Positions 1,791 to 61,914 are shown, numbered from the stretch's first letter. The stretch: 64,000 bases of DNA from Candidatus Jorgensenbacteria bacterium GW2011_GWB1_50_10 (GCA_001004105.1 LCQK01000001.1:166928-230927); one strand, 5' to 3'. Program-made: numbers and translations. Notes: a model not told the origin generated them from the sequence alone.

Positions 1791-1818
1791 TCATTTTCTC
1801 CCATATGGGAGAAAATGA
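1791..1818. repeat. Perfect 28-nt palindrome TCATTTTCTCCCATATGGGAGAAAATGA (CCCATATGGG-core family)
   Basis: Reverse complement identical; intergenic downstream of ComEA-like gene; shares core TTTCTCCCATATGGGAGAAA with copies at 10339, 11038, 61877. Confidence 0.8.
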
Positions 1819-2144
1819 GATATGGCAAAAACTTCAGAGAGATGCTCAGCGGCATATTAGGGAATGGAGCAATCTTTTCTCCGATATAGGAGTAACGGAA
1901 ATTCTGAAGAGTTCGAGCTATAAACGGGTTGATTTCCAAGAAAATCAGGTTCAAATTCGGTTCGCGCCCTCGCCGCGCGGTTCAAAATAGGGGAATTGGG
2001 AAAAAATTTGCCAACCTCCGAAAATTATGACGTTTTAGGAGGTTATCCCCACTTGCCACGTTTGACCAGTCAGCCATAATTTATCATGCCGAGCGTCGAA
2101 GAAAATCCGCCGGCTGGCGGATTAAAAAAAATCAAAAATTTTTC

Positions 2145-4613
2145 ATGAAAAAAAGGAAAAACGTTGCCGCAAAAGTGGTCACCCTAACTGATGAAACCGT
2201 GAACTCCAGTTTTTCGGAGAATGCCTTGAAAATGATGCGGAAACGCTACCTTTTTACTGACGAGAGCGGCAAACAGGAGGTGCCGGCCGACATGTTCAGG
2301 CGCGTGGCAAAGAATTTGGCGGAAGTTGAACGCAATTACGAGCACGACGAAAGGCGGGTAAAGCAAGTTGAAGGCGATTTTTACGAAATCATGGCGCGGA
2401 AGGAATACACGCCGGCAGGACGGACGCTCACCAACGCCGGGACGCCGCAATCTTTGATTGCAAACTGCATCGTTCTCCCCATCCGCGATTCAATGGAAAG
2501 TATTTTCGGAACTTTGAAAGACGCTTCGCTCTTACAGCAAGCCGGTTCCGGTTTGGGATTCGCTATCGACGAGATGCGGCCCTCCATGTGGCCGACCAAG
2601 CGCTCGCGCGGCCACTCTTCCGGGCCGGTTTCGTTCCTGAAGGTTTACAACGAAGCGTTTGGCACGATTAAGCAGCAGGGCCGGCACGGCGCGAATATGG
2701 CGATGATGTCGGTCAATCACCCGGACGTTTTGGATTTCATCCGGTCCAAAGAAGTGGAAGGGGAAATCCGCAATTTCAATATCTCGGTCAAGGTGACCGA
2801 TGAATTTATGAAACTCGTTGAAGAAGCGCCGGAGACAAAATGGTACTGCGAGTGGAGCGGTGAAAAATTGAAACCGCGAAAAGTTTTGCGCCACCCGAAC
2901 GGCTCTGTTTACGGCTACGAAGACGTGGATATCACGGTCGGCGAAATGTTTGACGAAATCGTGGAGTACGCTTGGCTAAACGGCGAACCGGGAATCGTTT
3001 TCATTGACGAGGTGAATCGGACAAACCCTTTGCCCTCGCTCGGTCCCATTGCTTGTTCCAATCCCTGTGGCGAGCAATTTCTCCACCCTTACGACAACTG
3101 CAATTTGGGTTCCATCAATCTCGCGGTTTTCGTGAAAGACGGAAAGGCGGATTACGCCCGTTTGCGTTTTGCGACAAAGACCGCCGTGCGCCTAATGGAC
3201 AACGTCATTGACCGGTTTGATTTTCCGGTGAAAGAAGTGACCGAACTTGCCAAAAAGAACCGGCGCATCGGGCTCGGGATTATGGGTTTCGCCGACATGC
3301 TCTATCAGTTGGGAATTAAATACAATTCCGAAAAAGGATACGAGACGGCCGAGAAGGTGATGAGTGTGATTCAGGAAGCTTCGCATGAGGCCTCGGCGGA
3401 ACTCGCCAAAGAAAAAGGCGCCTTCCCCAATATCAAGAAGAGTATTTTTGCCAAAGGCCCGAAAATGCGCAACGCCGCTTTGACGACGGTCGCGCCCACC
3501 GGTTCCATTTCCATGATGTACGACACTTCTTCCGGGGTAGAACCCAATTTCGCCCTGGCCTATGTGAAACAGGACAAAGATGGCGTCAAGTATCACTATT
3601 TGAACAGGTATTTTGAGGAAGAATTGAAGCGGCGCAACTTTAGCGAGGAAAAAATCAATGAAATCAAGGAAGAAGTCATGAAAACCGGCGGCATCCAGAA
3701 ATTGGACTCTCTGCCTCAGGACTTGCGGGACACATACGTCATTTCCATGGATATTCCGGGAGGGGACCACGTGAAAATCCAGGCCGCTTTTCAGAAACAC
3801 GTTGATAATTCCATCTCCAAGACGATTAATTTCCCCGGGAGCGCGACCAGGGAAGACGTGAAGCGCGGTTATATCCAGGCCTGGAAGGCCGGTTGCAAGA
3901 GCTGCACGGTTTACCGCGACGGTAGCCGCAACGTCCAGGTTTTGAACGTAGGGAGCGGCGAGAACATGATTTCTATCACAGATGTTCCTTCGGGAAAGAA
4001 ACGCGAAGCGCAAGCGCAACCGGTTTTGAATCTGGAAATTGACAAAGGCAAGCTTTCACCCCGGACGCGGCCGGCAGTAATGAGCGGCAAGACCTATAAG
4101 ATGAAAATAGGCTACGGTAATCTGTACGTGACGATTAACGACGATGAGACCGGTGCGCCTTTTGAGGTTTTTGCCGCAATCGGCAAGACCGGCGGCTTTT
4201 TCCAAGAGCAGAGCGAGAGCATCTGCCGGCTGATATCGCTATCGCTTCGGGCCGGCATTAAAGTGGAGGAAATTATTGACAACCTTAAAGGTATTCGCGG
4301 ACCGATGCCGGTTTTCACCGACAAAGGCACAGTCCTATCGCTCCCGGATGCGATCGCGAGAATTCTGGAAGAACACGTGACCGGCAAGAAAGAAGATGCC
4401 GTGGAAGAGTTGCCACAGGTGGCGGAACTTCAAGCACCTCAACCATTGGTGGTTACGGCCAAAGTTGATTTGAATTCATATGAGAACGGCAACGGAACGA
4501 AATCAATCGCCGATTACGGCTTGATGCCGGGCTGCCCCGAATGCGGCGAGATGCTTCAGATGAGCGAAGGGTGCCTTTCTTGCCGCAACTGCGGCTTCAC
4601 GCGCTGTTTGTAA
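2145..4613 (+). CDS. nrdJ: Class II (adenosylcobalamin-dependent) ribonucleotide reductase NrdJ with C-terminal zinc ribbon
   Basis: 822 aa; active-site NPCGEQ, TVAPTGSIS, C-terminal CPECGE...CRNCG; monomeric class II RNR length. Confidence 0.85.
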   Translation: MKKRKNVAAKVVTLTDETVNSSFSENALKMMRKRYLFTDESGKQEVPADMFRRVAKNLAEVERNYEHDERRVKQVEGDFYEIMARKEYTPAGRTLTNAGTPQSLIANCIVLPIRDSMESIFGTLKDASLLQQAGSGLGFAIDEMRPSMWPTKRSRGHSSGPVSFLKVYNEAFGTIKQQGRHGANMAMMSVNHPDVLDFIRSKEVEGEIRNFNISVKVTDEFMKLVEEAPETKWYCEWSGEKLKPRKVLRHPNGSVYGYEDVDITVGEMFDEIVEYAWLNGEPGIVFIDEVNRTNPLPSLGPIACSNPCGEQFLHPYDNCNLGSINLAVFVKDGKADYARLRFATKTAVRLMDNVIDRFDFPVKEVTELAKKNRRIGLGIMGFADMLYQLGIKYNSEKGYETAEKVMSVIQEASHEASAELAKEKGAFPNIKKSIFAKGPKMRNAALTTVAPTGSISMMYDTSSGVEPNFALAYVKQDKDGVKYHYLNRYFEEELKRRNFSEEKINEIKEEVMKTGGIQKLDSLPQDLRDTYVISMDIPGGDHVKIQAAFQKHVDNSISKTINFPGSATREDVKRGYIQAWKAGCKSCTVYRDGSRNVQVLNVGSGENMISITDVPSGKKREAQAQPVLNLEIDKGKLSPRTRPAVMSGKTYKMKIGYGNLYVTINDDETGAPFEVFAAIGKTGGFFQEQSESICRLISLSLRAGIKVEEIIDNLKGIRGPMPVFTDKGTVLSLPDAIARILEEHVTGKKEDAVEELPQVAELQAPQPLVVTAKVDLNSYENGNGTKSIADYGLMPGCPECGEMLQMSEGCLSCRNCGFTRCL

Positions 4614-4630
4614 AAAACAAAAATAAAAGA

Positions 4631-4666
4631 CCAACCCGCCTCTCTTAAGGGGCGGGTTGCTGTTTG
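4631..4666 (+). terminator. Rho-independent terminator after nrdJ
   Basis: Stem CAACCCGCC / GGCGGGTTG (9 bp) with loop tctcttaag, followed by CTGTTTG. Confidence 0.55.
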
Positions 4667-4896
4667 CGGCCGTTGGGGATGAGACGGGCGAGAACTTCCT
4701 CTTCGGTTTCTGCTCTCCGCTCGCCGTTGCCGACGTCTCTTTTCCATCGGCAGACTTCCAGAGTGACGGTGAGATTGTACACGAACGATTTTTCTCCGTC
4801 CGCGGCGAGGTTTACCGCCGTAATCCAAGCGGGGTTGAGGCCGTAGAGGCAGATCCCTAACTCCTTCCGCTTTTCGGAGAGTTCAGTCGCGTCCAC
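4645..4896 (-). CDS. Hypothetical small protein (GC-rich islet), GTG start
   Basis: 83 aa ORF; GGGAGGG immediately upstream of GTG; weak motif similarity (NPxx..A..EV) to the N-terminal half of the 56507 orphan protein; opposite-strand ORF 4657..4860 is an alternative. Confidence 0.3.
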   Translation of the reverse strand: MDATELSEKRKELGICLYGLNPAWITAVNLAADGEKSFVYNLTVTLEVCRWKRDVGNGERRAETEEEVLARLIPNGRKQQPAP

Positions 4897-4968
4897 TTTC
4901 CCTCCCTGAGAGTTCTAATTTAATTATATTCCTCGCAGATTTGATTTTTTGAGGGAAAAGTGCATAAA

Positions 4969-5199
4969 CTACAGGTAGCCCCCATCTTGGAGGAATATAT
5001 GTTTCAGGGGATTATCGCCTTGCCGCCAGGAAGGACTCTGGATGACGTTCGGGAGTTGAAGCCCAACGAAGGCGAGTGGCGGCCGCTGCCTGGCCTCTTC
5101 TGCATCAGTGATAGCGAACCCGCCGTTGCTCACCCTAACACGGACGGTATCGTGGGGTGTCCGGCGTGTCTCGCTACAGAAGATTTCACCGACGGTCAC
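4969..5199 (-). CDS. Hypothetical small protein (GC-rich islet), GTG start; possible paralog of the downstream ORF
   Basis: 76 aa; GGGGAGGG upstream of GTG, same initiation signature as 4645..4896; C-terminal GDNPLKHIFLQDG resembles KYNPLLKAFLAYND of the 56507 protein; plus-strand ORF 4999..5250 (GGAGG-6-ATG) is an equally possible alternative in this GC-rich stretch. Confidence 0.25.
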   Translation of the reverse strand: MTVGEIFCSETRRTPHDTVRVRVSNGGFAITDAEEARQRPPLAFVGLQLPNVIQSPSWRQGDNPLKHIFLQDGGYL

Positions 5200-5262
5200 C
5201 GCCCTCCCCGGCGGTTCCGTCGTGCGCTCGTCGGTTCCGACAGCGAGTGACGGGCAACCGCA

Positions 5263-5309
5263 GAAGCGAAAACGGCTCCGAACATCAGTTCGGGGCCGCT
5301 TCGTTTTTC
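5263..5309. terminator. Imperfect hairpin with T-runs on both strands (bidirectional terminator between the GC-rich islet and the SWIB gene)
   Basis: GAAGCG...GGCTCCGAAC atca GTTCGGGGCC..CGCTTC then GTTTTTCC on plus; reverse reading gives the hairpin then TTTTCGCTTC. Confidence 0.45.
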
Positions 5310-5333
5310 CGGAAGAGATTTAGATAAAATATC

Positions 5334-5588
5334 CTAGGAAAGGTGTTTGGAAACGAGCTTTGTCATTTCAAACATGCTCACCGTTGCTTTGCCGCCAAAC
5401 ACTTTCTTAAGATTATCATCGGCGTTAATGTTGCGCTTGTTCATCGGGTCCTGGAGATTGTTCTTTTTGATGTATACCCAGAGCTTTTTAACGACCTCCG
5501 ACCTGGGCATGGGCCCCGAGCCGACCACAGCAGCCAGTTCCTCGCTGATATTCATCGGCCTCATAAACGCTGAATTAGATTTTGCCAT
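5334..5588 (-). CDS. SWIB/MDM2 domain protein
   Basis: 84 aa; LAAVVG..MPRSEVVKKLWVYIKKNNLQDP..KRNINADDNLKKVFG motif pattern typical of SWIB. Confidence 0.8.
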   Translation of the reverse strand: MAKSNSAFMRPMNISEELAAVVGSGPMPRSEVVKKLWVYIKKNNLQDPMNKRNINADDNLKKVFGGKATVSMFEMTKLVSKHLS

Positions 5589-5648
5589 ATGTTTTATTGA
5601 TTTTCGACAGCTTTATTATACCAAATTCCACTTAAACTTTCTATATGG

Positions 5649-5670
5649 GCTCCCCGGGCAGGGAATCGAA
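5649..5670 (-). repeat. Degenerate duplicate of the tRNA-Asn 3' end (T-loop half plus acceptor 3' strand), att-like direct repeat
   Basis: Minus-sense TTCGATTCCCTGCCCGGGGAGC vs the intact tRNA 3' end TTCGAATCCTGCCCGGGGAGC, about 108 bp apart; no complete cloverleaf can be folded for this copy. Confidence 0.5.
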
Positions 5671-5776
5671 CAAAATTTCGCCTTCGCGAAATTTTCTGAC
5701 ACCTTGCGGTTTCAGTACTTCTACCACGGGAAAACTCCCGTTTTCCCGACCCCTTTCCCGTTCGAATCCTACTCTG

Positions 5777-5848
5777 CTCCCCGGGCAGGATTCGAACCTG
5801 CGACCTTCGCTTTAACAGAGCGCCGCACTACCGCTGTGCTACCGGGGA
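5777..5848 (-). tRNA. tRNA-Asn (anticodon GTT)
   Basis: Minus-strand cloverleaf TCCCCGG TA GCAC AGCGGTA GTGC G GCGCT CTGTTAA AGCGA AGGTC GCAGG TTCGAAT CCTGC CCGGGGA G. Confidence 0.85.
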
Positions 5849-5999
5849 ATGTTGAAATTATTACACGATTTGTTAAGATACATCAAGCGATATGGACCGC
5901 AAAGAATTAATCAGGACAGTCTATCTTTATCTTTTCTCGCTGGGAGCGAAAGGAGAAAAACGCCTCGGCGTTTAGAATTCCTCAATTAAAAATAAATAT

Positions 6000-6073
6000 C
6001 CCCCTATAGCTCAGTCCGGTAGAGCAGCTCCCTTTTAAGGAGATGGTCCCAGGTTCAAATCCTGGTGGGGGGA
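6000..6073 (+). tRNA. tRNA-Lys (anticodon TTT)
   Basis: CCCCCTA TA GCTC AGTCCGGTA GAGC A GCTCC CTTTTAA GGAGA TGGTC CCAGG TTCAAAT CCTGG TGGGGGG A. Confidence 0.85.
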
Positions 6074-6103
6074 CAAGAGATTGGGGTATTTATTTTTGCC
6101 TCA

Positions 6104-6157
6104 CTGCCATCTGATAAGGAGATGGTCGTAGGTTCAAATCCTACACGGGGGACAAGA
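6104..6157 (+). pseudogene. Partial duplicate of the tRNA-Lys 3' half (anticodon-arm 3' side, T-arm, acceptor 3' strand) with compensatory T-stem changes
   Basis: TAAGGAGATGGTC-GTAGG-TTCAAATCC-TACAC-GGGGGACAAGA vs tRNA TAAGGAGATGGTC-CCAGG-TTCAAATCC-TGGTG-GGGGGACAAGA; no matching 5' acceptor strand. Confidence 0.5.
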
Positions 6158-6186
6158 TTTTTTAGAGGTGATATTATATAGAGGCT

Positions 6187-7614: not shown

Positions 7615-7619
7615 AACAG

Positions 7620-8336: not shown

Positions 8337-8337
8337 C

Positions 8338-9868: not shown

Positions 9869-9893
9869 GTTTGATTGATTTGTTGAACTTACG

Positions 9894-10208: not shown

Positions 10209-10338
10209 AGAGGTTTACGAGAAGCCAGAAAGGCGCCGCTCCGTGAATTTACGGACCGCGGCGCTTTCGTTCTAATCTTCTTAAATAATCTATTAAAGCA
10301 AAAAGCTGGTTCCTGTTTCAATTTCATTTATTAATAGT

Positions 10339-10384
10339 CTCTTCTATTCACTTTCTCCCATATGGGAGAAAGTGAATAGAAGAG
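10339..10384. repeat. Perfect 46-nt palindrome CTCTTCTATTCACTTTCTCCCATATGGGAGAAAGTGAATAGAAGAG
   Basis: Reverse complement identical; 150 bp upstream of the GC-rich orphan gene 10538..10921. Confidence 0.85.
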
Positions 10385-10446
10385 AATCAAACTCAATTTA
10401 AAAATTGAGAGAATGAAAATCTGACTTTAACAATCCACACCCCTTA

Positions 10447-10474
10447 TTGACTATTTTCTTTTAATATCTACAAT
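10447..10474 (+). promoter_or_regulatory. Sigma70-like promoter (TTGACT-16-TACAAT) for the orphan gene 10538..10921
   Basis: -35 TTGACT 10447..10452, -10 TACAAT 10469..10474. Confidence 0.4.
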
Positions 10475-10537: not shown

Positions 10538-10921
10538 ATGCGGGTACAGGTTGCTCCATCCCAGGCCCAGATTTTTCAGAAGATGATGGCGGGGGCGAAA
10601 AAACCCATCACCGACGGGGCGCTCGTCCGAGTTGACCTACTGCACCTCGTGACACGGAGGGTCAGCCGCCGGACGAGAGAGGCGTATTTCAACGCCAGGG
10701 GGCGAGTTCGGCCGAGGTGCTTCTTCGTCCAGGGGAACGGTGCGCCCATTTCGGAGAGAATCCGGTTTGAGGGCATTGTTCTTCGGGGGAGAGGCGAGTT
10801 CGCGGCTCACGACGTCTTCAACGTGATGGTGGACGCGCGCGACCCGGCGGTCACGGTCATCCGGCCGTGGAAGGACGATGAGCATCCGGAGGAAAACACC
10901 GACGTGAAGCCCGCGCACTGA
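10538..10921 (+). CDS. Hypothetical GC-rich orphan protein (127 aa); shares C-terminal motif VTV(I/Y)RP(W/M)K with the 56507 protein
   Basis: GGAGAGGAG RBS then ATG; about 60% GC vs AT-rich flanks; own promoter and terminator; flanked by CCCATATGGG palindromes. Confidence 0.5.
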   Translation: MRVQVAPSQAQIFQKMMAGAKKPITDGALVRVDLLHLVTRRVSRRTREAYFNARGRVRPRCFFVQGNGAPISERIRFEGIVLRGRGEFAAHDVFNVMVDARDPAVTVIRPWKDDEHPEENTDVKPAH

Positions 10922-10956
10922 AGAGCACAACTAAGGGATGGAGTAACAAGAACGAG

Positions 10957-10994
10957 GGGCAGTCGTCCGCCGGATGACTGCCCTTTTGATTTTT
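10957..10994 (+). terminator. Rho-independent terminator
   Basis: GGGCAGTC gtccgccggat GACTGCCC followed by TTTTGATTTTT. Confidence 0.6.
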
Positions 10995-11037: not shown

Positions 11038-11069
11038 ATTCACTTTATCCCATATGGGATAAAGTGAAT
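11038..11069. repeat. Perfect 32-nt palindrome ATTCACTTTATCCCATATGGGATAAAGTGAAT
   Basis: Reverse complement identical; downstream flank of the orphan gene. Confidence 0.85.
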
Positions 11070-11084
11070 GCTTAGTGAGTATGT

Positions 11085-11123
11085 GAAAACAAAACGGCCG
11101 CGATTCCTGGTGAATCGGGCCGT
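11085..11123. terminator. Imperfect hairpin flanked by A-run and T-run (bidirectional terminator between convergent genes)
   Basis: AAAACGGCCGCGATTCC tggtg AATCGGGCCGTTTTCAG. Confidence 0.4.
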
Positions 11124-11125
11124 TT

Positions 11126-11512
11126 TCAGTTCAAGCTGGTAGGAAGGGCGATAGCGAAGTTTGTTGCGAGTCGAATGCGCTTACGCTTCATGTTAGCCAT
11201 TTCCCACGCGAGATGCGAGATGAGGCAAACAGAGGCGAGTTCGGTTTCGGTGAGGTCGTCCTGTTCCTTGAGGATGTTGCAGCCGTGGATGGCTTCTTCG
11301 GCATCGTGGCGAAGAATTTTCCAGAGCGGAAAATCTTCACCGGTTCTCCGGAACGCCTCGACGAGATTTTTGAACGTTTTGATTCTCATCATGGCGTAGA
11401 GGAAAGCGCCCATCTCGAGTGAACACTCCGCTTCATCGGCTTCTTCGTAGCGCCGCTTGCAGTAGTCAAGCGCTTGCCCGAAAGCCGCATCGGAAATTTC
11501 TTTAATCAGCAT
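11126..11512 (-). CDS. Hypothetical protein (128 aa)
   Basis: Clean ORF, no recognisable motif. Confidence 0.45.
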   Translation of the reverse strand: MLIKEISDAAFGQALDYCKRRYEEADEAECSLEMGAFLYAMMRIKTFKNLVEAFRRTGEDFPLWKILRHDAEEAIHGCNILKEQDDLTETELASVCLISHLAWEMANMKRKRIRLATNFAIALPTSLN

Positions 11513-11680: not shown

Positions 11681-11721
11681 AGAAAGGCCTCTTTTTGAAG
11701 GAGAGGCCTTTCTGTTTTTTG
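11681..11721 (+). terminator. Strong rho-independent terminator about 70 nt downstream of the promoter (bounds a ~105-nt transcript / leader)
   Basis: Perfect 12-bp stem AGAAAGGCCTCT / AGAGGCCTTTCT then GTTTTTTGAG. Confidence 0.6.
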
Positions 11722-11848: not shown

Positions 11849-12306
11849 AGCCGGCAAACCGGAGAACGGGCCCCGCAAACCAGAAGGAAAACGGGCCCTT
11901 TTTCTATAATGAAGAGATGGACAAAGAAAAATTACCACCAGAACTCTATCGCGTGGCATATGAGAAAGGCACCGAGGTGCCTTTCACCGGCAAATATGTT
12001 CATGAAAAAGCCGAGGGTATGTACAGGTGCGCCGTCTGCGGCAGCGAACTTTTTTCGTCGGAGGCGAAATTTGATTCCGGCACCGGCTGGCCGAGTTTCA
12101 CCGAGCCGGCCAATTTGAACAATATTGAACTAAAGGAAGATTTAAGCGGAGGCATGCGGCGCACCGAGGTTTTGTGCAGAAAGTGCGGGGCGCACTTGGG
12201 CCATGTTTTTGACGATGGGCCGCGGGACGGGCGCCTGCCTGCCGGCAGGCAGGGCAAGCGTTATTGCATCAACTCCGTTTGTTTGGACCTGGAAAAGAAA
12301 GAGTAG
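11845..12306 (+). CDS. msrB: Peptide-methionine (R)-S-oxide reductase MsrB carrying an in-frame LPAGRQ insertion
   Basis: CxxC...[23 protein letters not shown] MsrB motifs; ATG at 11917 is an alternative start; 6-aa insertion between DG and GKRYCINS encoded by the palindrome. Confidence 0.85.
12234..12253. repeat. 20-nt perfect palindrome CCTGCCTGCCGGCAGGCAGG, in-frame inside msrB (encodes LPAGRQ)
   Basis: Direct read; reverse complement identical; no stop codon in any frame. Confidence 0.9.
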
Positions 12307-12322: not shown

Positions 12323-12370
12323 CCCGCCAGTCCATGGACTGGCGGGGCCGCCAGTCCATGGACTGGCGGG
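12323..12370. terminator. Two tandem 24-nt palindromic hairpins (CCGCCAGTCCATGGACTGGCGG twice) between convergent genes
   Basis: Each unit is self-complementary with CCATGG centre; lies between the msrB stop and the minus-strand ORF stop. Confidence 0.45.
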
Positions 12371-12376: not shown

Positions 12377-12562
12377 TTAACGGAAGTTCCGTCTCGGAGG
12401 TCTTTCTTCGCGGTAACAATCACGGCACATCAAGTTGCTCATGCGGGCCGGATCCGGCTCGAAAGGGAGCTCGGTAATCGCTTTGCCGCACTTGGAGCAC
12501 TTCCAGTCACCCTGATACATCTTCCGCGGAGGAAAACCACCGTTATCCTGGTTAAAAGCCAT
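12377..12562 (-). CDS. Hypothetical small zinc-ribbon protein (61 aa)
   Basis: CSKCGK..x22..CRDC; clean ORF convergent with msrB. Confidence 0.4.
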   Translation of the reverse strand: MAFNQDNGGFPPRKMYQGDWKCSKCGKAITELPFEPDPARMSNLMCRDCYREERPPRRNFR

Positions 12563-25442: not shown

Positions 25443-25526
25443 TGCCCGAGGTGGGAGTCGAACCCACATGTCCTTGCGAACACAGGATTTTGAGTCCTGC
25501 GCGTCTGCCAGTTCCGCCACCCGGGC
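25443..25526 (-). tRNA. tRNA-Leu (anticodon CAA), type II with long variable arm
   Basis: GCCCGGG TG GCGG AACTGGCAGAC GC GCAGGA CTCAAAA TCCTGT var GTTCGCAAGGACATG TGGG TTCGACT CCCA CTCGGGC A. Confidence 0.85.
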
Positions 25527-25545
25527 CTGCCTGCCGGCAGGCAGG
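25526..25545. repeat. 20-nt palindrome CCTGCCTGCCGGCAGGCAGG abutting the 5' end of tRNA-Leu
   Basis: Direct read; first base is shared with the tRNA. Confidence 0.9.
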
Positions 25546-25593
25546 CGAAATTTTATTGATAATGCCACAAATATTGGGTAGAGTAAATATTAT

Positions 25594-26370
25594 ATGGCTC
25601 GCGTTATAGCGATTTGCAATCAGAAAGGCGGGGTGGGGAAGACCACGACCGCGATGAACTTATCGGCCTATCTTGCGATGGCCGGCAAGCACACGCTCCT
25701 TGTTGATTTTGACCCGCAATTCAACGCGACGGTGGGAGTGGGCGCAACGCACGCGCCGGACGAAACGATTTATCACGCGCTCTTAGCCGGGGTAGCCGTG
25801 GAGCGGATTATTAAGCCGACCTACCTTTCTAATTTTGAAATCGCACCGTCCTCGGCGGACTTGGCCGGAGCGCTTGTGGAACTCGTGAATTTGCCGGATA
25901 GGGAAACTTATCTTAGAAATTTTATAAACCGTATCCGCGACCGATACGATTTCATTCTCATTGACTTGGGACCGAGTTTGAATCTTCTAACGGTAAACGG
26001 CCTTATGGCTGCTGACGAGGTCATTGTGCCCATCCAGTGTGAGTATTACAGTTTGGAAGGATTGAATCAGCTTTTAGAAACGTTGGATTTGGTGAGAAAC
26101 AATTTGGGGCATCAGATCCAGGTGGCCGGAGCGTTGCTCACCATGTACGACAAACGTGAGAAACTTTCCCGGGAAATCGCCCGCGAAGTGAGACGGCGTT
26201 TTCCGCACAAGGTTTACGAGATTGAAATTCCGCGCTCGGTGGGTCTCGCCGAGGCGCCCCAATTCAAAAAACCGATAATGCTCTACGCTCCCCAGTCCTC
26301 CGGCGCAAGGGCCTATGAGGCGCTTGCCCGCGAGGTTATTGGCGTCCCGTCTTATCCACAAACGGCTTGA
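25594..26370 (+). CDS. parA: Chromosome partitioning ATPase ParA/Soj
   Basis: KGGVGKTTT Walker A; 258 aa. Confidence 0.9.
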   Translation: MARVIAICNQKGGVGKTTTAMNLSAYLAMAGKHTLLVDFDPQFNATVGVGATHAPDETIYHALLAGVAVERIIKPTYLSNFEIAPSSADLAGALVELVNLPDRETYLRNFINRIRDRYDFILIDLGPSLNLLTVNGLMAADEVIVPIQCEYYSLEGLNQLLETLDLVRNNLGHQIQVAGALLTMYDKREKLSREIAREVRRRFPHKVYEIEIPRSVGLAEAPQFKKPIMLYAPQSSGARAYEALAREVIGVPSYPQTA

Positions 26371-26705
26371 TTGACAGCGCCCGCGGTTCTTCTAACATTC
26401 TTTATTAGTTCGTGTCTTCTCGGGATGCGTGTTTGGTTTCCTGTGAGGCGTTCGTACGGCGCCAAATTGGTTTCCGGCACATGTTTTGGGGAGATTGCGG
26501 ACTCGTGCATGTGCATGTTGCTAAAGCAGAGGAAAGTGTATTCCGTTTCTTGGGAAGTGACGAAGTACTTCAAACTCCGGTGAGTTCTTTAATCAAAAAT
26601 TGAATTAATTACCCCGGAGTCCTTCAATGAAGGAAAAGATGCTTCTTAAAAGGCGGAATGCGGCCCCTCTGTTTTAGTTTTTGTAAGTGATATAAAATTG
26701 AGAGA

Positions 26706-27716
26706 ATGACAGGCAAAGGATTGGAATCTCTTATTCCCAAAAAAGATCGGGACGGGGAGATGTTCTCAAAAGACGCGGTCATTTCACCCAGAGCGAATGA
26801 AACGCCGCTCGACTCTCAACCTCGCTCTGTCCCGTTGGGGCGGGACAACCATACCCGCTCGGTTTCCCTGCCTGACCGGCAGGCAGGCGAGACACTTTCT
26901 CAAGCATCTCCCCGTCCCTCAATTAGAGATGAAGCGATATTCCAGATAGAAGTTGAGAAAATAAAACCCAACCCCTACCAGCCGCGGAAAGATTTTAACG
27001 ATGAAGAAATTGAAGATTTGGCCCGTTCCGTCCGCGAGTTCGGCATCATCCAGCCCTTAGTGGTCACCAAAGTTGAAAAAGAAACGGAGACCGGCACGAG
27101 CGTGGAATACGAGCTTATTACTGGAGAGCGCCGGCTTCTTGCGGCCAAAAAAATTGGTTTGCGGAGCGTGCCCGCAATCGTAAAGAGAGTGGATGTCGGG
27201 AAAGCCAAACTGGAAATGGCGCTTGTGGAAAACATCCAGCGGAGCGATTTGAATCCATTGGAAATAGCTAGGGGCTACGCGCGGCTGCAGGACGAGTTTA
27301 ATCTAACCCAGCAGGAGGTCGCCTCCCGGGTCGGCAAGAGTCGGGCTTCCGTTGCAAACACAGTGCGGCTTCTCGCTCTTCCAGGCGAAATGCAGGAAGC
27401 GTTGGGGGCAGGGAAAATAAACGCTTCGCAGGCCATCGCTCTTCTTGCCACCTCCGACATCAATGAACAGCGGCGCTTATTCAGCGAGTTTGTTCACGGT
27501 AAGACTATTAAAGGAGATGCGTCCCACGCCGCGAAAGCTGAAACGCCTGACCCGGAAAAACAATATTGGGAAAAACGCCTAGAAGAACGTTTCGGCGCGC
27601 CGGTCAAGATCATGCGCCGGGATGGCAGGGGAAAAATGGAAATTCGTTTCCATTCCAAAGAAGAATGGCAGGCGATCTTAGATAAGCTTTTGGGCGGCGA
27701 GAATCCCGAAACTTAG
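26706..27716 (+). CDS. parB: ParB/Spo0J partition protein with about 60-aa low-complexity N-terminal insertion
   Basis: GKGLESLIP, ParB box ELITGERRLLAAK, HTH; insertion contains the palindromic element (SLPDRQAGE). Confidence 0.85.
   Translation: MTGKGLESLIPKKDRDGEMFSKDAVISPRANETPLDSQPRSVPLGRDNHTRSVSLPDRQAGETLSQASPRPSIRDEAIFQIEVEKIKPNPYQPRKDFNDEEIEDLARSVREFGIIQPLVVTKVEKETETGTSVEYELITGERRLLAAKKIGLRSVPAIVKRVDVGKAKLEMALVENIQRSDLNPLEIARGYARLQDEFNLTQQEVASRVGKSRASVANTVRLLALPGEMQEALGAGKINASQAIALLATSDINEQRRLFSEFVHGKTIKGDASHAAKAETPDPEKQYWEKRLEERFGAPVKIMRRDGRGKMEIRFHSKEEWQAILDKLLGGENPET
26867..26887. repeat. Variant palindrome CCTGCCTGACCGGCAGGCAGG (one extra A) in-frame in parB
   Basis: Direct read. 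Confidence 0.85.
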
Positions 27717-35946: not shown

Positions 35947-36130
35947 GAACTTTTATTTTTTACGTCAGACACTCTTCGGCTCGGGCGATTTCGTCCCGCT
36001 TCGGCGGGACTCAACCCTTCGCTCGCTTTAGACCGAGCACTCAAAGCATTGAGTGCTCGGTAGCTCGCTCACCCTAAAGGGCTCCGCCGAAGAATGGTAT
36101 TGAGAGTCTGACTTTAAAAAATAAAAGTTC
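35947..36130 (+). ncRNA. Structured repeat element copy A (about 184 nt): long closing stem, two internal perfect hairpins, conserved cores; second copy at 56176
   Basis: Closing stem GAACTTTTATTTTTTACGTCAGACACTCTTCGGC / GCCGAAGAAT..GAGAGTCTGACTTTAAAAAATAAAAGTTC; inner hairpins GTCCCGC-ttcg-GCGGGAC and CCGAGCACTCAA-agca-TTGAGTGCTCGG; conserved TCAACCCTTCGCTCGCTTTAGA and TAGCTCGCTCACCCTAAAGGGCTCCGCCGAAGAAT. Confidence 0.5.
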
Positions 36131-54308: not shown

Positions 54309-54323
54309 TATTATTAATTCAAG

Positions 54324-56168: not shown

Positions 56169-56175
56169 GGAATTA

Positions 56176-56367
56176 AAACTTCTTTTCTTACGCCAGACAG
56201 CTTCAGCTCGGGCGATTTCCCCCGCCTGTCCATGGGCAGGCGGGGTCAACCCCTCGCTCGCTTTAGATCCGGTGGTATGACGCGTCATACCACCGGATAG
56301 CTCGCTCACCCTAAAGGGCTTCGCCGAAGAATTGAGGGGTAAGTCTGGCGCAAAGAAAAGTAGTTTT
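56176..56367 (+). ncRNA. Structured repeat element copy B (about 192 nt), homolog of copy A with compensatory changes
   Basis: Closing stem AAACTTCTTTTCTTACGCCAGACAGCTTCAGC / GCCGAAGAAT..GTCTGGCGCAAAGAAAAGTAGTTT; hairpins CCCCGCCTG..CAGGCGGGG and TCCGGTGGTATGACG/CGTCATACCACCGGA; same conserved cores as A. Confidence 0.5.
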
Positions 56368-56381
56368 GATAAGAGAAGAAT

Positions 56382-56410
56382 TTGACAAAATCAGATTTAT
56401 CTGATATAAT
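56382..56410 (+). promoter_or_regulatory. Consensus sigma70 promoter TTGACA-17-TATAAT driving the 56507 orphan gene through a hairpin-containing 5'UTR
   Basis: -35 56382..56387, -10 56405..56410; 5'UTR hairpin GGTATAAGA/TCTTATACC; SD CAGGAGG. Confidence 0.55.
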
Positions 56411-56506
56411 TAAAGATAGCACAATGGTATAAGATCACTCTGGTCTTATACCCCTACCAGATGCCCGGACGGGCTCAAAGGGTCGGATGACCCAGGAGGC
56501 ACAGCA

Positions 56507-57016: not shown

Positions 57017-57034
57017 CCCGCAGTTGCAGAGTTT

Positions 57035-57066
57035 GGAGGCGACACGAAAGTGCCGCCTCTTTCTTT
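57035..57066 (+). terminator. Rho-independent terminator
   Basis: GGAGGCG acacgaaagt GCCGCCTC then TTTCTTTTT. Confidence 0.55.
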
Positions 57067-57651
57067 TTATCCTTTCTCCACCCGTTCTACGTAATCGCCG
57101 CTTGCCGTGTTTATGCGGATGATGTCGCCTTCATTGATGAAGAGGGGAACATTTACTTTGGCGCCGGTTTCCAAAGTCACGGTTTTAGTGCCGCCCTGGG
57201 CGGTGTTGCCTTTGACGCCCGGCGGCGCTTCCGTCACTTTCAAGTCCATCTTGACGGGCGGTTCGATATTGATGATTTTTTCGTTGAATTTGAAAGCCCG
57301 TGCCTCGCTGCCCTGTTTCAAATAATTTGCCGCTTCGCCCACGATGTCGGCCTTGAGGGCAAATCTTGATTTGGGATTGCCAGAGACGTGGAACCAGTAC
57401 TCCTGCCTGCCGGCAGGCAGGCGCCGCGCATAAATAAACTCAACCGGAATTATCTCAATATCTGCCTCTTTGAACGAGTCGTTCTGGTGGGCGGCGTATT
57501 CCCGGACCTTGCCGGAAATTAAATTCTTGATTTTGAGCTGGGCCACGGGCTTGCGCTGCTGCATCCGGACGAAGGCGTAGTCCAGTACCTCATACGGCTC
57601 GCCGTCTTTAATGAACAACATCCCGACTTTTAGTTCGTTGTAGGAAAGCAT
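57067..57651 (-). CDS. efp: Elongation factor P carrying an in-frame LPAGRQ insertion
   Basis: 194 aa EF-P; FIYARR-LPAGRQ-EYWFHV where canonical EF-P has a short loop. Confidence 0.9.
   Translation of the reverse strand: MLSYNELKVGMLFIKDGEPYEVLDYAFVRMQQRKPVAQLKIKNLISGKVREYAAHQNDSFKEADIEIIPVEFIYARRLPAGRQEYWFHVSGNPKSRFALKADIVGEAANYLKQGSEARAFKFNEKIINIEPPVKMDLKVTEAPPGVKGNTAQGGTKTVTLETGAKVNVPLFINEGDIIRINTASGDYVERVEKG
57402..57421. repeat. 20-nt palindrome CCTGCCTGCCGGCAGGCAGG in-frame inside efp
   Basis: Direct read, perfect copy. Confidence 0.9.
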
Positions 57652-57720
57652 AACGAGAACTATTGTGCCCTAATTCCCAAAAATAATCAACGCCTGGGAA
57701 CCTGTATAATTAGATTAAAT

Positions 57721-59493
57721 ATGACTGAAACAAAGGTCTGCCAAAGTTGCAAACAAAGTTTTGTAATAGAGGCCGAGGATTTTGATTTCTACATGAAAAT
57801 CCAAGTTCCGCCGCCGACGTGGTGTTCGGATTGCAGAATCATGCGGCGGCTTGCTTGGCGAAACGAGCGAACGCTGTATAAAGCGAAGTGCGCGAATTGC
57901 AAGAAAGATATTTTTTCCGCTTACTCACCGGACAAACCATTTCCGGTTTTCTGCCACGATTGCTGGTTTTCCGATGCCTGGGACCCTATAGCCTACGGCC
58001 GTGATTATGATTTTTCCAGGCCCTTTTTTGAGCAGTGGGGCGAGCTTTTTCAGGAAGTGCCGCGGCTCAATCTCTGGCAATTGAACTGCGTAAATTCCCC
58101 GTACTCAAACATTATCCGCGATGCCAAGAATTGTTACCTTGCTTTTTCCATGGTTGGCGGTGAGGAGGTTTTTTATTCAAAAATCATTGACCGTTCGAAG
58201 CAGATTTTTGACAGTTTGCTCGTCGTAGACAGCGAGCTCTGTACAGGGGTGATTTACGGTGCGAAGAATTATAACGTCCACAATTCTCTCTCCGTTAACT
58301 CATGCTTGGATTCGTCTTTCTTATTTGACTGCCGGAACGTCAGAAACTGCTTCATGAGTTCCAACTTCCGCAATAAAGAATATGTTTTCAAGAATAAACA
58401 GCTTACAAAAGAGCAGTATATTGGAGAATTAAAGAAGATTAATTTCGGCAGTTTTTCGGTTTCCCAGGGCTTAAAAAAGGAATTTGATGAAATGTTGCTT
58501 CGGTCTATTCATGAATATGCTGATAATAACAAGGTAGAAAACTCCACCGGTGATAAGTTAATGAACGTGAGAAACGTAAAAGATTCTTTTGAAAGTTATG
58601 AGATGGAGAACTGCCGCTTTATGGGGCGGTGCCTTCAAATTAATGATTCAATGGATTGCGTATATACAGGAGTTGGTTCAGAGTTGATTTTTGAATATAC
58701 TAGCGGTGGCTCGGCGATGCGAAACATTAAATTTGCGATTGCCTGTTTTGGCGGCGAGAGCGACTGTATTTATGTTGGTTGGTGCAAGAACTCGTCAAAT
58801 CTTTTCGGTTGTTTTGGGGTTCGTGACAAACGTTATTGTATTTTAAACAAGCAATACACAGAAGCAGGGTATGATGAATTGGTATCGAAAATTATAAAAC
58901 ACATGGACGCGATGCCATATGCGGGAAAGAACGGCCGCATTTATAAATATGGAGAATTCTTTCCGATTGAACTTTCGCCGTTTTCATATAACGGCAGTGT
59001 GGCGCAAGAACACTACCCGTTTGCGAGGGAGGAGATCCTGGCGCGCGGGTACAATTATCGCAAGCCGGACGTGAAGGATCCGGCGATTGACGTCAAAAAT
59101 GAGGAGATTCCGGATGATATTACCTCGGTTAAAGACGATTTTGTGGGTAAATCAGTCGCCTGTGCTCACGCCGGAGAATGTATCCATCAGTGCACCGTTG
59201 CTTTTAAGATTGTTCCTCAAGAACTTACGATGTATCGGAGAATTAAACTTCCTCTGCCGCGTTTATGTCCCAACTGTCGCCACTACGAACGCTTGAGATA
59301 TAGGAATCCTTGGAAACTCTGGCACCGCAAATGCACTTGTGCCGGCCAAAAATCAGAAAATGGCGTCTATCAAAACACCACTTCTCATTTCCACGGTGCA
59401 GGCCATTGCCCCAACGAATTTGAAACAAGTTATTCTCCGGACAGAAAGGAGGTCGTCTACTGCGAGCAGTGCTATAACACTGAGGTAGTGTAA
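57721..59493 (+). CDS. Hypothetical Cys-rich protein with homologous double zinc-ribbon modules at both termini and a central beta-helix-like repeat region
   Basis: N-terminal CQSC..CSDCR..CANC..CHDC; C-terminal CPNCR..CTC..CEQC; internal repeat of the module (Y.K..P.P..C..CR..R...RN...L...C....YSPD...V.C..C). Confidence 0.55.
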   Translation: MTETKVCQSCKQSFVIEAEDFDFYMKIQVPPPTWCSDCRIMRRLAWRNERTLYKAKCANCKKDIFSAYSPDKPFPVFCHDCWFSDAWDPIAYGRDYDFSRPFFEQWGELFQEVPRLNLWQLNCVNSPYSNIIRDAKNCYLAFSMVGGEEVFYSKIIDRSKQIFDSLLVVDSELCTGVIYGAKNYNVHNSLSVNSCLDSSFLFDCRNVRNCFMSSNFRNKEYVFKNKQLTKEQYIGELKKINFGSFSVSQGLKKEFDEMLLRSIHEYADNNKVENSTGDKLMNVRNVKDSFESYEMENCRFMGRCLQINDSMDCVYTGVGSELIFEYTSGGSAMRNIKFAIACFGGESDCIYVGWCKNSSNLFGCFGVRDKRYCILNKQYTEAGYDELVSKIIKHMDAMPYAGKNGRIYKYGEFFPIELSPFSYNGSVAQEHYPFAREEILARGYNYRKPDVKDPAIDVKNEEIPDDITSVKDDFVGKSVACAHAGECIHQCTVAFKIVPQELTMYRRIKLPLPRLCPNCRHYERLRYRNPWKLWHRKCTCAGQKSENGVYQNTTSHFHGAGHCPNEFETSYSPDRKEVVYCEQCYNTEVV

Positions 59494-59494
59494 A

Positions 59495-60931
59495 ATGTCT
59501 TCTTACGACATTTTCTTTTTTGTTGCGTTGTTTTTCTTAGCTGGAGTGTTTTTGTCGAGTATCGGAGGAGAGTTTTGGATATTAGTTTTGGTTGTCGCGG
59601 CGGGAGCCGCGTTTTTGTTTTGGGGCGTTTGGCGCAAAAACAGAAGATTTTTTTGGCTTGCCGGTCTGGTTTTTATCACTATCGTGGGCGCGCTTTATTA
59701 CACCGGGGATGATTTGAAATTCCAGGGAAGCGTCAATATTCATTTTGACGAGAAAATAACTTTTACCGGCGTCATTATTTCCAACCCAACCTTGAAAAGT
59801 GGCAGTCAAGAATTTAAATTGAAATTAAATCCGCCCTTTAGCGGCAATGTTTTAGTAAAAACCGCCCGCTATCCCGAGTTCAGTTATGGCGATGAAGTGC
59901 GGATTGAGGGAAAAATAGAGAGACCGTTTTCCGGAAGTTATGCTCAATATTTGAGTAAAGAAAAGATAAGCGGCGTCGTAACTTTTGCCGAGGCCGAAGA
60001 AATCTCAAGCGGCAAGGGAAGCAAAATAAAAGCGCTCCTTTTCGGCGTCAAAAATGCCGTGATTGGCTCGTTTCAGAATATTTTACCGGTGAAGGAGGCA
60101 GCCTTTGCTTCCGGCCTTACTTTGGGCGAGCGGGGAGAGTTTTCCGAAGAGTTTCGGGAAGCAATGTCAAAGAGCGGCACGACGCATTTGGTAGCGCTCT
60201 CCGGCTACAACATCACGATTATCGTCGGCGCCGTGACGGGGCTCTTTGTTTGGTTTCTCTCGCGCCGGGTTTCATTTATTCTCACTATCATTGTGGTTTT
60301 GGGTTTCGTGCTCATGACCGGCGCCGAGGCCTCGGTGGTACGGGCGGCGATTATGGGAATTTTAGTGATGCTCTCACGCGAAGTGGGGCGCTTGTTTGAT
60401 TTCCGGAACGCGATAATCTTGGCCGGACTCCTCATGGTTCTTCAAAATCCCAAAGTGCTCGCTTTTGACGCCGGTTTTCAATTGTCGTTTCTCGCGCTTC
60501 TCGGAATAATCTATCTTCGGCCGGCAGTCGTGAAATTTTTCCGGGTCAGTGACGACGAAGGGTTTTTGTCTTGGAAAGGCAACCTTTTGACCACCGCCTC
60601 AGCGCAATTTATGGTTGCGCCGCTTTTGATCTCCAGTTTCGGCAGTTTTTCGCTCACCTCGCTTGCCGCAAACGTCTTAATTTTGGAACTTGTCCCGCTC
60701 ACGATGTTTTTGGGTTTTCTTACCGCCTTTTTGGGTTTTTTCGCCAGTTACTTTGCTATGATCTCAGGGCTTATCGTTTCCGTGCTTCTCAAATTTGAGA
60801 TGTTTGTCATAGAACTCTTCGCTAAATTGAGTATTCCTTTCGGTTCGGGTGCCGGAAGTTTATTTTTCGTTTTCTATTACATGGTTCTTGTCGGTTTCAT
60901 AATTTATGTGGGAAAAATTAGCCGAGCATAA
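59495..60931 (+). CDS. comEC: ComEC/Rec2 competence protein, membrane channel part (DUF4131 plus competence domain)
   Basis: TTHLVALSGYNITII motif, 10+ TM. Confidence 0.8.
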   Translation: MSSYDIFFFVALFFLAGVFLSSIGGEFWILVLVVAAGAAFLFWGVWRKNRRFFWLAGLVFITIVGALYYTGDDLKFQGSVNIHFDEKITFTGVIISNPTLKSGSQEFKLKLNPPFSGNVLVKTARYPEFSYGDEVRIEGKIERPFSGSYAQYLSKEKISGVVTFAEAEEISSGKGSKIKALLFGVKNAVIGSFQNILPVKEAAFASGLTLGERGEFSEEFREAMSKSGTTHLVALSGYNITIIVGAVTGLFVWFLSRRVSFILTIIVVLGFVLMTGAEASVVRAAIMGILVMLSREVGRLFDFRNAIILAGLLMVLQNPKVLAFDAGFQLSFLALLGIIYLRPAVVKFFRVSDDEGFLSWKGNLLTTASAQFMVAPLLISSFGSFSLTSLAANVLILELVPLTMFLGFLTAFLGFFASYFAMISGLIVSVLLKFEMFVIELFAKLSIPFGSGAGSLFFVFYYMVLVGFIIYVGKISRA

Positions 60932-61775
60932 AAACAAAATTATCGTTTTGCTCGCGGCCCTCGCGATTCTTGATTTTTTGGTTTTTTGGCAAATCGGCAG
61001 GGCGGGAACGGAGGATGAAAATTTAAGGATTTATTTCTTGAGCGTCGGCCAGGGCGACAGTGAGCTTGTCGAACTACCGGGCGGCGTGAAGGTTTTGATT
61101 GACGGCGGCCCGCCGAACGGCTTGGTCTCCGGAGAATTAAGTAAATTTCTGCCGATGGGTGACCGTTACGTTGATTTAGTGGTGATGAGCCATCCGCAAT
61201 TGGACCACTTCGGCGGCTTGATTGAAATTTTGAGAAATTACGAAATCGGCGCCTTCCTTACAAGCGGCCGTGAGGGGGAAGCCGCGGCTTTTGCCGAGCT
61301 TGAGCAAGTAATTGAAGAGAAGAACATAAAAGTTATTACGCTCTCTGCCGGCGACAGAATCCGCTATCTTGATTCTCGTTTTGAAATTTTGAGCCCCGAA
61401 CCGGCCGATTTGAAAAGCAGAGAATTGAACGATGCCACGCTTGTGATGGAGCTTACGAACGGGGCGGCGAAGGCGCTTTTTACGGGTGACATCGGAGCAG
61501 ACATTGAGGAGAAGATTTTCTGGAAATTGGAGAATATCGATATTCTCAAAGTCCCTCACCACGGCTCCAAATTTTCTTCATCGGAAAAATTTCTCGCGGC
61601 GATAAAACCGGCGGTCGCGGTGGTGGAAGTCGGCAAGAACAGTTACGGCCATCCGACGAAAGAAGCGCTCGATCGGGTAAGTTCCGTGGGCGCCCGCATT
61701 TTCCGGACGGATTTGGACGGCACTTTAAGGTTTGAACTAAGCGATAAGGAGATTAGAATTTTTCAGCAGAGATAA
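60906..61775 (+). CDS. ComEC C-terminal metallo-beta-lactamase domain encoded as a separate, +1-overlapping ORF
   Basis: MBL motif VMSHPQLDHFGG, D..H; overlaps the upstream ORF by 26 nt in the +1 frame. Confidence 0.75.
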   Translation: MWEKLAEHKNKIIVLLAALAILDFLVFWQIGRAGTEDENLRIYFLSVGQGDSELVELPGGVKVLIDGGPPNGLVSGELSKFLPMGDRYVDLVVMSHPQLDHFGGLIEILRNYEIGAFLTSGREGEAAAFAELEQVIEEKNIKVITLSAGDRIRYLDSRFEILSPEPADLKSRELNDATLVMELTNGAAKALFTGDIGADIEEKIFWKLENIDILKVPHHGSKFSSSEKFLAAIKPAVAVVEVGKNSYGHPTKEALDRVSSVGARIFRTDLDGTLRFELSDKEIRIFQQR

Positions 61776-61800
61776 CCAGTTGCTGTAAGATTTCTGTCTC

Positions 61801-61834
61801 GCCTCAAAAACGCCCATATGGGCGTTTTTGAGGC
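61801..61834. repeat. 34-nt perfect palindrome GCCTCAAAAACGCCCATATGGGCGTTTTTGAGGC (hairpin after the comEC-MBL stop)
   Basis: Reverse complement identical; CCCATATGGG core; no T-run. Confidence 0.8.
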
Positions 61835-61876
61835 GGTAGAGAAAAAGTTTAGTTTGGAAATTGGGTTGTTCTTTCT

Positions 61877-61914
61877 CTATTTCACTTTCTCCCATATGGG
61901 AGAAAGTGAAATAG
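61877..61914. repeat. 38-nt perfect palindrome CTATTTCACTTTCTCCCATATGGGAGAAAGTGAAATAG
   Basis: Reverse complement identical; same family as 10339 and 11038. Confidence 0.85.

Follow-up and report, generated by a model that had tools for sequence, protein, structure and literature searches.

Perfect palindromes in a Candidatus Jorgensenbacteria genome as probable operator-type sites of a compact PaaX-like protein family

A 64,000-nt stretch of the genome of Candidatus Jorgensenbacteria bacterium GW2011_GWB1_50_10 (GCA_001004105.1, LCQK01000001.1:166928-230927; hereafter the window, with positions counted from its first letter) contains five perfect palindromes built on the core CCCATATGGG. The core occurs at 1800, 10357, 11049, 61813, and 61891, five copies where shuffling yields 0.03 on average and 1 at most, and every copy lies at the centre of a loop-less perfect palindrome of 28-48 nt in intergenic DNA. 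The original prediction, made from the sequence of the window, of five perfect palindromes on a common core was thus borne out, with the core far above chance frequency in the window. Three of the five sets of coordinates that it gave are unchanged, and two palindromes proved slightly longer (10338-10385, 48 nt, instead of 10339-10384, and 61800-61835 instead of 61801-61834). All five sites share the layout YTCA-N22-TGAR, and a scan of the 64 kb for YTCA-N22/24/26-TGAR with up to three arm mismatches returned these five and zero extra matches. Four of them have the order T-run, core, A-run (class A; TTCACTTTNTCCCATATGGGANAAAGTGAA), and site 4 alone has the order A-run, core, T-run (class B; CCTCAAAAACGCCCATATGGGCGTTTTTGAGG). 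The sites are base-for-base equal in independent groundwater assemblies of the same population (LCPI01, LCPO01, ANAN16 scaffolds, SRR1658462, and JGI 3300025012) and are therefore no assembly artefact.

The palindromes, to which no strand is assigned, fall into three regions. Site 1 (1790-1819, perfectly palindromic over the 28 nt of 1791-1818; TTCATTTTCTCCCATATGGGAGAAAATGAG; class A) follows an open reading frame (ORF) at 597-1712 that was predicted to be ComEA-like. This ORF does carry a lamin-tail domain (LTD) plus HHH_3, but its TTG start at 597 is over-extended, because a secreted repeat protein gene on the minus strand (1-620) begins at 620. Site 2 (10338-10385; core 10347-10376, TTCACTTTCTCCCATATGGGAGAAAGTGAA) lies 153 nt upstream of a GC-rich gene on the plus strand (10538-10921), and site 3 (11038-11069, 32 nt; ATTCACTTTATCCCATATGGGATAAAGTGAAT) lies beyond this gene, flanked by convergent canonical terminators at 10954-10986 and 11084-11133. 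Site 4 (61800-61835, 36 nt; CGCCTCAAAAACGCCCATATGGGCGTTTTTGAGGCG) is found 25 nt past the stop codon of a metallo-beta-lactamase (MBL) ORF, and site 5 (61877-61914, 38 nt; CTATTTCACTTTCTCCCATATGGGAGAAAGTGAAATAG; class A) 55 nt ahead of the ATG of an aminoacyl-tRNA synthetase (aaRS) gene. The comEC and MBL ORFs described near these last two sites are indeed there.

The sites, 25-117 nt past stop codons or between convergent genes, have strong predicted hairpins (-11 to -23 kcal/mol as DNA, z -5.7 to -10.9), and they could be RNA hairpins only, either bidirectional intrinsic terminators or mRNA-stabilising 3′ stem-loops, alike by common descent. Compensated arm changes and the A5-stem-T5 core within class B sites would agree with this. 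However, in four of the five sites the T-run comes first and the A-run last, so that a U-tract follows the hairpin on neither strand, and a terminator scan called none of the five sites, yet called canonical terminators nearby (10954-10986, 11681-11713, and 5273-5298), two canonical terminators already enclosing site 3. The YTCA/TGAR ends, the fixed length, the palindromic "loop," and the placement upstream of a transcription start described below are also left unexplained, and we regard this explanation as improbable. Searching Rfam returned three tRNAs in the window and no family matching the palindromes.

Palindromes of this kind are present in other genomes. The 20-mer TTTNTCCCATATGGGANAAA, scanned over one genome per species, gave 50 stretches, and in about half of these the palindrome reaches 26-50 nt, past the 20-mer searched, mostly in intergenic DNA. 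The non-extended matches are mostly genic and look like chance. As a negative control, six viral 20-mer matches were inspected; none becomes a long palindrome, the longest being 22 nt. Extended copies were seen in several Patescibacteria, namely, JAKALR01 (at least six copies), PFWU01, CAZGRD01, and a Jorgensenbacteria metagenome-assembled genome, and in many Verrucomicrobia. The layout YTCA-N22-TGAR, with N24 or N26 in other genomes, also occurs at about 55 sites outside the window. The outer half-sites are invariant and the 11-13 nt from half-site to centre are constant; the central 10-14 nt exist in one version per genome and differ among genomes.

In two Verrucomicrobia loci, a gene for a protein of 261-263 aa is tightly bracketed by two of the palindromes, and in this protein Pfam recognises PaaX_M, the middle domain of PaaX, which is Cas2-like. 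The Patescibacterium JAKALR01 (L037) encodes a 174-aa relative between two palindromes in the same manner. In Patescibacteria, the homologs, called mini-PaaX here, constitute a compact family with a length of about 172 aa, and a related, very conserved family of about 260 aa occurs in Verrucomicrobia. The family alignment was retrieved with 80 metagenomic loci as 8000-nt blocks (L numbers denote loci throughout), and palindromes of this type flank the gene in some 40 different loci from metagenomes and in four from Verrucomicrobia (L011, L044, L148, and L149); four further look-ups of locus context agree with this flanking. In 25 of 36 non-redundant close-family loci with both flanks, a perfect palindrome (24 nt or longer) occurs in the 200 nt upstream or the 150 nt downstream of the gene, compared with 8 in 171 kb elsewhere, an enrichment of about 60-fold beside the gene. 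Allowing up to three mismatches, upstream and downstream sites were also found in most loci without a perfect one, and the non-redundant loci having both an upstream and a downstream site number 43. Sites of the close family have one of four centres (CATATG, CACGTG, CGTACG, or TATATA), and those of a more distant subfamily, of 180-195 aa, have CGATCG. One locus (L059) carries class A next to class B sites, as the window does, and in most genomes, the 8-20 kb covered contain no sites other than the two or three at the mini-PaaX gene itself. The suggestion to look for a cognate DNA-binding protein has therefore led to a candidate family, whose gene is flanked by palindromes in dozens of genomes. 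Metagenome contigs stop or fold back exactly at the palindromes (L085 1-120, L094 1-120, the end of L165, and the start of L037), giving artefactual perfect palindromes of 120 nt. In practice, the small gene between the sites is therefore often on very short contigs, may miss the bins, and is often absent from binned genomes.

An AlphaFold model of mini-PaaX (pLDDT 85) combines an N-terminal winged helix with a ferredoxin-like Cas2 fold, and its structural matches in Foldseek were, in order, Escherichia coli PaaX (8A39), 3L09, a Cas2 RNase (3EXC), and Rv0674 (3KFW). The 172-aa proteins stop after the Cas2-like domain and have no C-terminal ligand domain, which in PaaX binds phenylacetyl-CoA (PMC9493321). 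They score 22-63 bits with the curated PaaX equivalog model TIGR02277, for which the cutoff is 264.55. With scores this far under the cutoff and the C-terminal domain absent, an assignment to PaaX proper, the phenylacetate repressor, was rejected. An invariant FDVP motif aligns with the beta1 Asp of Cas2, which is replaced in E. coli PaaX and Rv0674, and the family has one invariant cysteine, in a YCK motif. Membership in a defence system was rejected, as PADLOC gave weak Cas2 and winged-helix matches only. A viral origin was likewise rejected, since the IMG/VR viral contigs contained no mini-PaaX relatives and the six viral 20-mer matches were short. In the searchable literature, we found no published link of PaaX-like proteins to Patescibacteria or to such palindromes, and a search with CCCATATGGG returned NdeI-site primers only.

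The position of the upstream palindrome relative to the mini-PaaX promoter is informative. An extended -10 box (TGnTAnnnT) is found within 60 nt upstream of the mini-PaaX ATG in 21 of 37 non-redundant loci and ends 6-9 nt before the ATG in 16, which implies a leaderless mRNA. The palindrome occupies one of two placements. In the first, its centre is 38.5-44.5 nt upstream of the ATG and it covers the -35 zone. In the second, its centre is 16.5-18.5 nt upstream, and the extended -10 is formed by the right arm (ATGGTAnAAT...), which is, because of this double role, an imperfect copy of the left arm. The upstream palindrome looks like an autoregulatory operator, at which the protein would act as a repressor.

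On the other side of the gene, GTGGGGATAAGT lies immediately next to the downstream operator in five mini-PaaX loci (L077, L084, L089, L090, and L095), and its reverse complement contains TTATCCCCA, one mismatch off a DnaA box. A copy of GTGGGGATAAGT with two mismatches is found in the window at 2041-2052, abutting the -35 of a predicted nrdJ promoter. The palindrome centre itself equals two inverted DnaA-box-like sequences (TTATCCACATATGTGGATAA) in several genomes. Downstream of mini-PaaX, four loci (L076, L084, L089, and L090) share a conserved sigma-70-type promoter with a hairpin and T-run within about 15 nt (…GGAAAACAGAGAGC…GCTCTGTTTTCC-TTTTATTTT). This unit precedes the gene of an unnamed family of about 190 aa and could be an attenuator leader or a small RNA.

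Site 1 fits the second of the two upstream operator placements. Positions 1764-1888 of the window are 85% identical over 125 nt to 3876-3999 of L072, a segment that combines an upstream operator with the opening 66 nt of an intact mini-PaaX gene. The matching stretch of the window runs into a frameshifted and truncated relic on the plus strand (1822-1990, the end being approximate) from which the Cas2-like half is absent. Its beginning (1822-1885) reads MAKTS, followed by a 1-nt insertion and an early TAG; the other frame goes on as ...RHIREWSNLFSD..., and internal deletions follow. When family proteins were compared with the window, 37 of 45 matched 1829-1981 (best E 1.6e-5), with no comparable match anywhere else in the window. 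Given the identity to L072, the frameshifted relic, and these protein matches, we take site 1, whose centre precedes the ATG of the relic by 17.5 nt, to have served a mini-PaaX gene, now dead, as its upstream operator. It is also the only site in the window that overlaps the promoter of its own regulator gene, here the dead one. The right arm, ATGGTATAAATTGA in intact genes, is ATGGGAGAAAATGA at site 1, the exact complement of the left arm. In the alignment, three right-arm changes, all towards symmetry, abolished the -10.

Sites 4 and 5 lie in a plus-strand gene series (59495-63378) of comEC (59495-60931), MBL (60906-61775), the two palindromes, and aaRS (61969-63378). In L078, the order is comEC, MBL, an intact mini-PaaX gene, a 217-aa ORF, and aaRS; in the window, the gap holds sites 4 and 5 instead. 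The contigs that encode an identical MBL protein, 17 of 17, have no mini-PaaX at the gap position. Site 5 is centred 46.5 nt ahead of a TAGAAT -10 box, the equivalent distance for the downstream operator of L078 being 45.5 nt, and the sequence of site 4 is a close match to that of the operator upstream of the intact gene in L068. Judged by this gene order, sites 4 and 5 would mark a gene position that has been kept in the relative L078 and emptied in the window. In the comEC region itself (59495-61775), the Competence/DUF4131 and metallo-beta-lactamase parts are encoded by two different ORFs with a 26-nt overlap. This split is seen in all the independent assemblies and is therefore no sequencing error.

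The gene between sites 2 and 3 had been called an orphan, and it is a real near-orphan, for which 1.8 billion representative proteins gave only three homologs, all distant. The gene comes with a sigma-70-like promoter (10447-10474) and a canonical terminator (10954-10986) of its own, and we regard it as context, outside the palindromic element. In L141, an ortholog has conserved neighbours, promoter, and terminator without any palindromes, so that sites 2 and 3 were gained or lost independently of the gene. For the same reason, the idea that the orphan gene is a mobile cassette was rejected. A match of L023 to the orphan protein was treated as spurious, as that region resembles a dihydrouridine-synthase gene, by eye only.

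Taken together, these comparisons make it probable that the palindromes are the cognate operator-type sites of mini-PaaX, the copies in the window being relics or extras. Of the three possibilities raised in the original prediction (a palindromic protein-binding site, a mobile repeat, or terminator-embedded uptake sequences), the operator is the best supported, with a candidate protein family, a flanked gene in dozens of genomes, and operator-typical promoter geometry. A mini-PaaX dimer would sit over a site of 30-36 bp, its two winged helices reading the outer YTCA and TGAR, about three helical turns apart, across A/T-rich linkers, with the central 10-14 bp being lineage-specific. Through the upstream site, which overlaps a leaderless promoter at its extended -10 or -35 zone, the protein would repress the transcription of its own gene; a second site lies directly past the mini-PaaX stop codon. 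In the window, the sites may have outlived the gene or spread beyond it, with sites 2 and 3 as extra copies gained around a neighbouring gene, and an intact paralog elsewhere in the genome would presumably supply the protein.

Several points weigh against the operator reading. The 64-kb window has no intact mini-PaaX gene, only the pseudogene, and the intact paralog elsewhere in the genome is presumed; candidates for such a copy are carried by two loci of similar tetranucleotide composition, L055 (0.947) and L077 (0.959). The link between protein and site is drawn from co-location and covariation. None of the five window sites has the promoter geometry of a functioning regulator gene, the spacing of site 5 being suggestive and none convincing, and site 3 sits between convergent terminators. 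In addition, a plain operator does not explain two properties of the palindromes, their symmetry at spacer positions and the 55-180 nt of flank that some copies have in common.

The first of these properties was assessed by comparing the two sites of each locus. Among 688 arm positions, 566 are identical and symmetric, 52 are compensated (different between the sites, with symmetry preserved in each), and 70 are asymmetric. Since one protein presumably acts at both sites of a locus, symmetry at the variable positions points to selection for a hairpin or cruciform or to templated correction from arm to arm, and under the operator reading, one of these two processes would keep the symmetry.

As for the second property, copies with common flanks take the form of imperfect fold-back repeats of about 180 nt in JAKALR01; flanks of 55-64 nt are shared by copies in the window, and those in L020 and PFWU01 extend over 65 nt (at 100% identity) and 93 nt, respectively. 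A JAKALR01 copy separates rpsI from a convergent gene at a junction that has zero spacer in the window, and the presence or absence of copies varies among related genomes. Such dispersed, flank-sharing copies are REP-like or MITE-like behaviour (repetitive extragenic palindromes and miniature inverted-repeat transposable elements, respectively). It is thus possible that the palindrome-gene-palindrome arrangement is a formerly mobile or domesticated unit, comparable to REPs and their REP-associated tyrosine transposases (RAYTs), in which the Cas2-like domain cuts or copies the palindromes and decay leaves solo palindromes and MITE-like fold-backs. Besides the dispersed copies and their patchy occurrence, this would suit the bracketing of mini-PaaX by palindromes, as RAYT genes are bracketed by REPs, the FDVP Asp at the Cas2 beta1 position, and the composition of the window, with site 1 and the pseudogene (85% identity to L072 at its start) as a dead copy and sites 4 and 5 as an empty pair. 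However, an HUH/Y1 or other transposase domain is absent from the protein, and the RAYT search proposed in the original prediction found no transposase domain among the approximately 60 window ORFs scanned. The palindromes have no GTAG, and three JAKALR01 copies that were inspected showed neither a consistent, convincing target-site duplication nor a parent insertion sequence. The viral contigs had no relatives, in most genomes the two or three sites at the gene are the only ones in the 8-20 kb covered, and within a lineage, the neighbourhood is conserved (thioredoxin reductase, cupredoxin, and DsbA, or the family of about 190 aa and LTD), as expected for a resident gene. Nuclease activity would be pure conjecture. 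The suggestion of a REP- or MITE-like element therefore holds in a descriptive sense, for the dispersed copies, common flanks, and presence/absence pattern, but not for a transposase or GTAG motif, and we consider a mobile origin unlikely. We give slightly less credit still to a hitherto unrecognised palindrome-associated system centred on the winged-helix/Cas2-like protein, which would recognise the extruded hairpin or cruciform and cut or copy it through the Cas2-type Asp. The palindromes would thereby multiply and become uniform, and cassettes in decay, like those of the window, would remain.

The location of the sites beside DNA-uptake genes had suggested terminator-embedded uptake sequences, and the association does recur in other genomes, in the surroundings of the mini-PaaX gene. 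Among 37 loci, the neighbours of mini-PaaX include the unnamed family of about 190 aa in 10 and, coming after it, a large LTD-domain protein in 7. Further neighbours are cupredoxin, thioredoxin reductase, DsbA-like, glutaredoxin, and small zinc-ribbon proteins, as well as HSP20, ClpB, and aaRS-NDK. Competence genes are also found near mini-PaaX, namely, comEC-MBL in L078 and DprA just upstream of the gene in a Verrucomicrobium (L148). The site regions of the window match these neighbour sets, with the LTD-HHH ComEA-like gene in the first, zinc-ribbon, MsrB, and thiol-redox genes in the second, and comEC-MBL with aaRS-NDK in the third. The competence association is thus that of the gene neighbourhood of the regulator and not of uptake sequences.

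Known uptake sequences occur about once per kb and are frequent within genes; the core in the window is never in coding DNA and occurs about once per 13 kb, and the order of T-run and A-run is wrong for a terminator in four of the five sites. Another DNA-level system would be a non-canonical parS for the ParB encoded at 26706-27716. The window has parA and parB (25594-27716), a search for canonical parS (16 bp; TGTTNCACGTGNAACA / TGTTTCACGTGAAACA) gave no match at up to three mismatches in the 64 kb, and the outer arms TTTCAC/GTGAAA resemble parS half-sites; for uptake sequences, in turn, the sites following the LTD-HHH ComEA-like gene and comEC-MBL can be cited. Against both stand the five copies in 64 kb with none in coding DNA, a 10-mer confined to the palindromes, a length of 30-48 bp and a centre that varies between related genomes (parS having 16 bp and being near-invariant across phyla), the absence of parAB near mini-PaaX in the called and annotated loci, and the neighbourhood of the regulator, which accounts for the competence link. 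Either function has very little likelihood in our view.

The comparison with known systems is most direct for E. coli PaaX, which recognises TGATTC(N27)GAATCA and is an autorepressor at the promoter Px (PMC9493321). Both proteins combine a winged helix with a Cas2-like middle domain, both operators are long, their short inverted half-sites being separated by about three helical turns, and in both cases a site overlaps the regulator's own promoter. Unlike PaaX, mini-PaaX is about half the size, keeps the Cas2-type Asp, and has no paa genes nearby, and its site is palindromic throughout, spacer included, with a second site past the stop codon. The resemblance to REPs and REP doublets (REPINs) with their RAYTs consists of extragenic palindromes of 30-40 nt, a flanked single-copy gene, a palindrome type that covaries with the protein subfamily, and dispersed intergenic copies; the differences are a flanked gene that encodes no HUH Y1 transposase, the lack of GTAG, perfect loop-less copies, and the low copy number in most genomes sampled. 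The controlling inverted repeat of chaperone expression (CIRCE), the site of HrcA, is also an inverted repeat that is conserved across phyla and tied to one regulator, and some mini-PaaX genes adjoin HSP20, ClpB, or thioredoxin reductase. However, CIRCE has another sequence and another protein family, and the 9-nt non-palindromic spacer is lacking in the mini-PaaX site. CIRCE can serve both as an operator and as an RNA hairpin. Finally, the DNA uptake sequences (DUS) of Neisseria and uptake signal sequences (USS) of Pasteurellaceae can form inverted pairs after genes, and the window sites adjoin DNA-uptake genes; their density in the window, however, is at least tenfold lower, they have no genic copies, and their core is lineage-dependent.

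From a biological perspective, almost nothing is known of transcriptional regulation in Patescibacteria (the Candidate Phyla Radiation), and a widespread, uncharacterised regulator family can now be paired with a defined DNA site and a promoter geometry of extended -10 and leaderless mRNA. The candidate target neighbourhoods comprise LTD/ComEA-type surface proteins, comEC, thiol-redox genes, and heat-shock genes. The sites also show, in a clear natural case, that the symmetry of a palindrome is maintained or restored: beside the dead gene, the operator has turned into a perfect palindrome and no longer has its -10.

Further features of the window deserve mention. Between 11845 and 25424, genes for MsrB, a DsbD-like protein, a thioredoxin-like protein, two DoxX, DsrE, a copper P-type ATPase, an Fe/Mn superoxide dismutase, and MgtC are densely clustered, and this cluster resembles the redox surroundings of mini-PaaX genes in related genomes. 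At 12323-12370, a tandem pair of perfect palindromes of 22-24 nt (CCCGCCAGTCCATGGACTGGCGGG), followed on the minus strand by a T-run, was called as the terminator of the zinc-ribbon gene at 12377-12562; this pair is unrelated to the CATATG family.

Two other repeats were noted. A perfect palindrome of 20-22 nt, (G)CCTGCCTGCCGGCAGGCAGG(C), is present three times (12234-12253, 25525-25546, and 57402-57421) and also in L141 (3886-3905). One copy lies within the MsrB coding sequence and is shared with the ortholog in L141, and another shares 2 nt with the end of a tRNA gene (25443-25526, minus strand). These palindromes may be an in-frame palindromic insertion family. Finally, an element of about 150 nt has two copies, at 35948-36110 and 56177-56345, that are 72% identical. 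Its frame is conserved (…TCGGGCGATTTC…CGCTCGCTTTAGA…TAGCTCGCTCACCCTAAAGGGC…GCCGAAGAAT…), and the internal hairpins are wholly different, each still pairing; the perfect palindrome at 56267-56298 is one of these hairpins, with its counterpart at 36032-36061. The element had no Rfam match even at E<=1, and it looks like a structured RNA.

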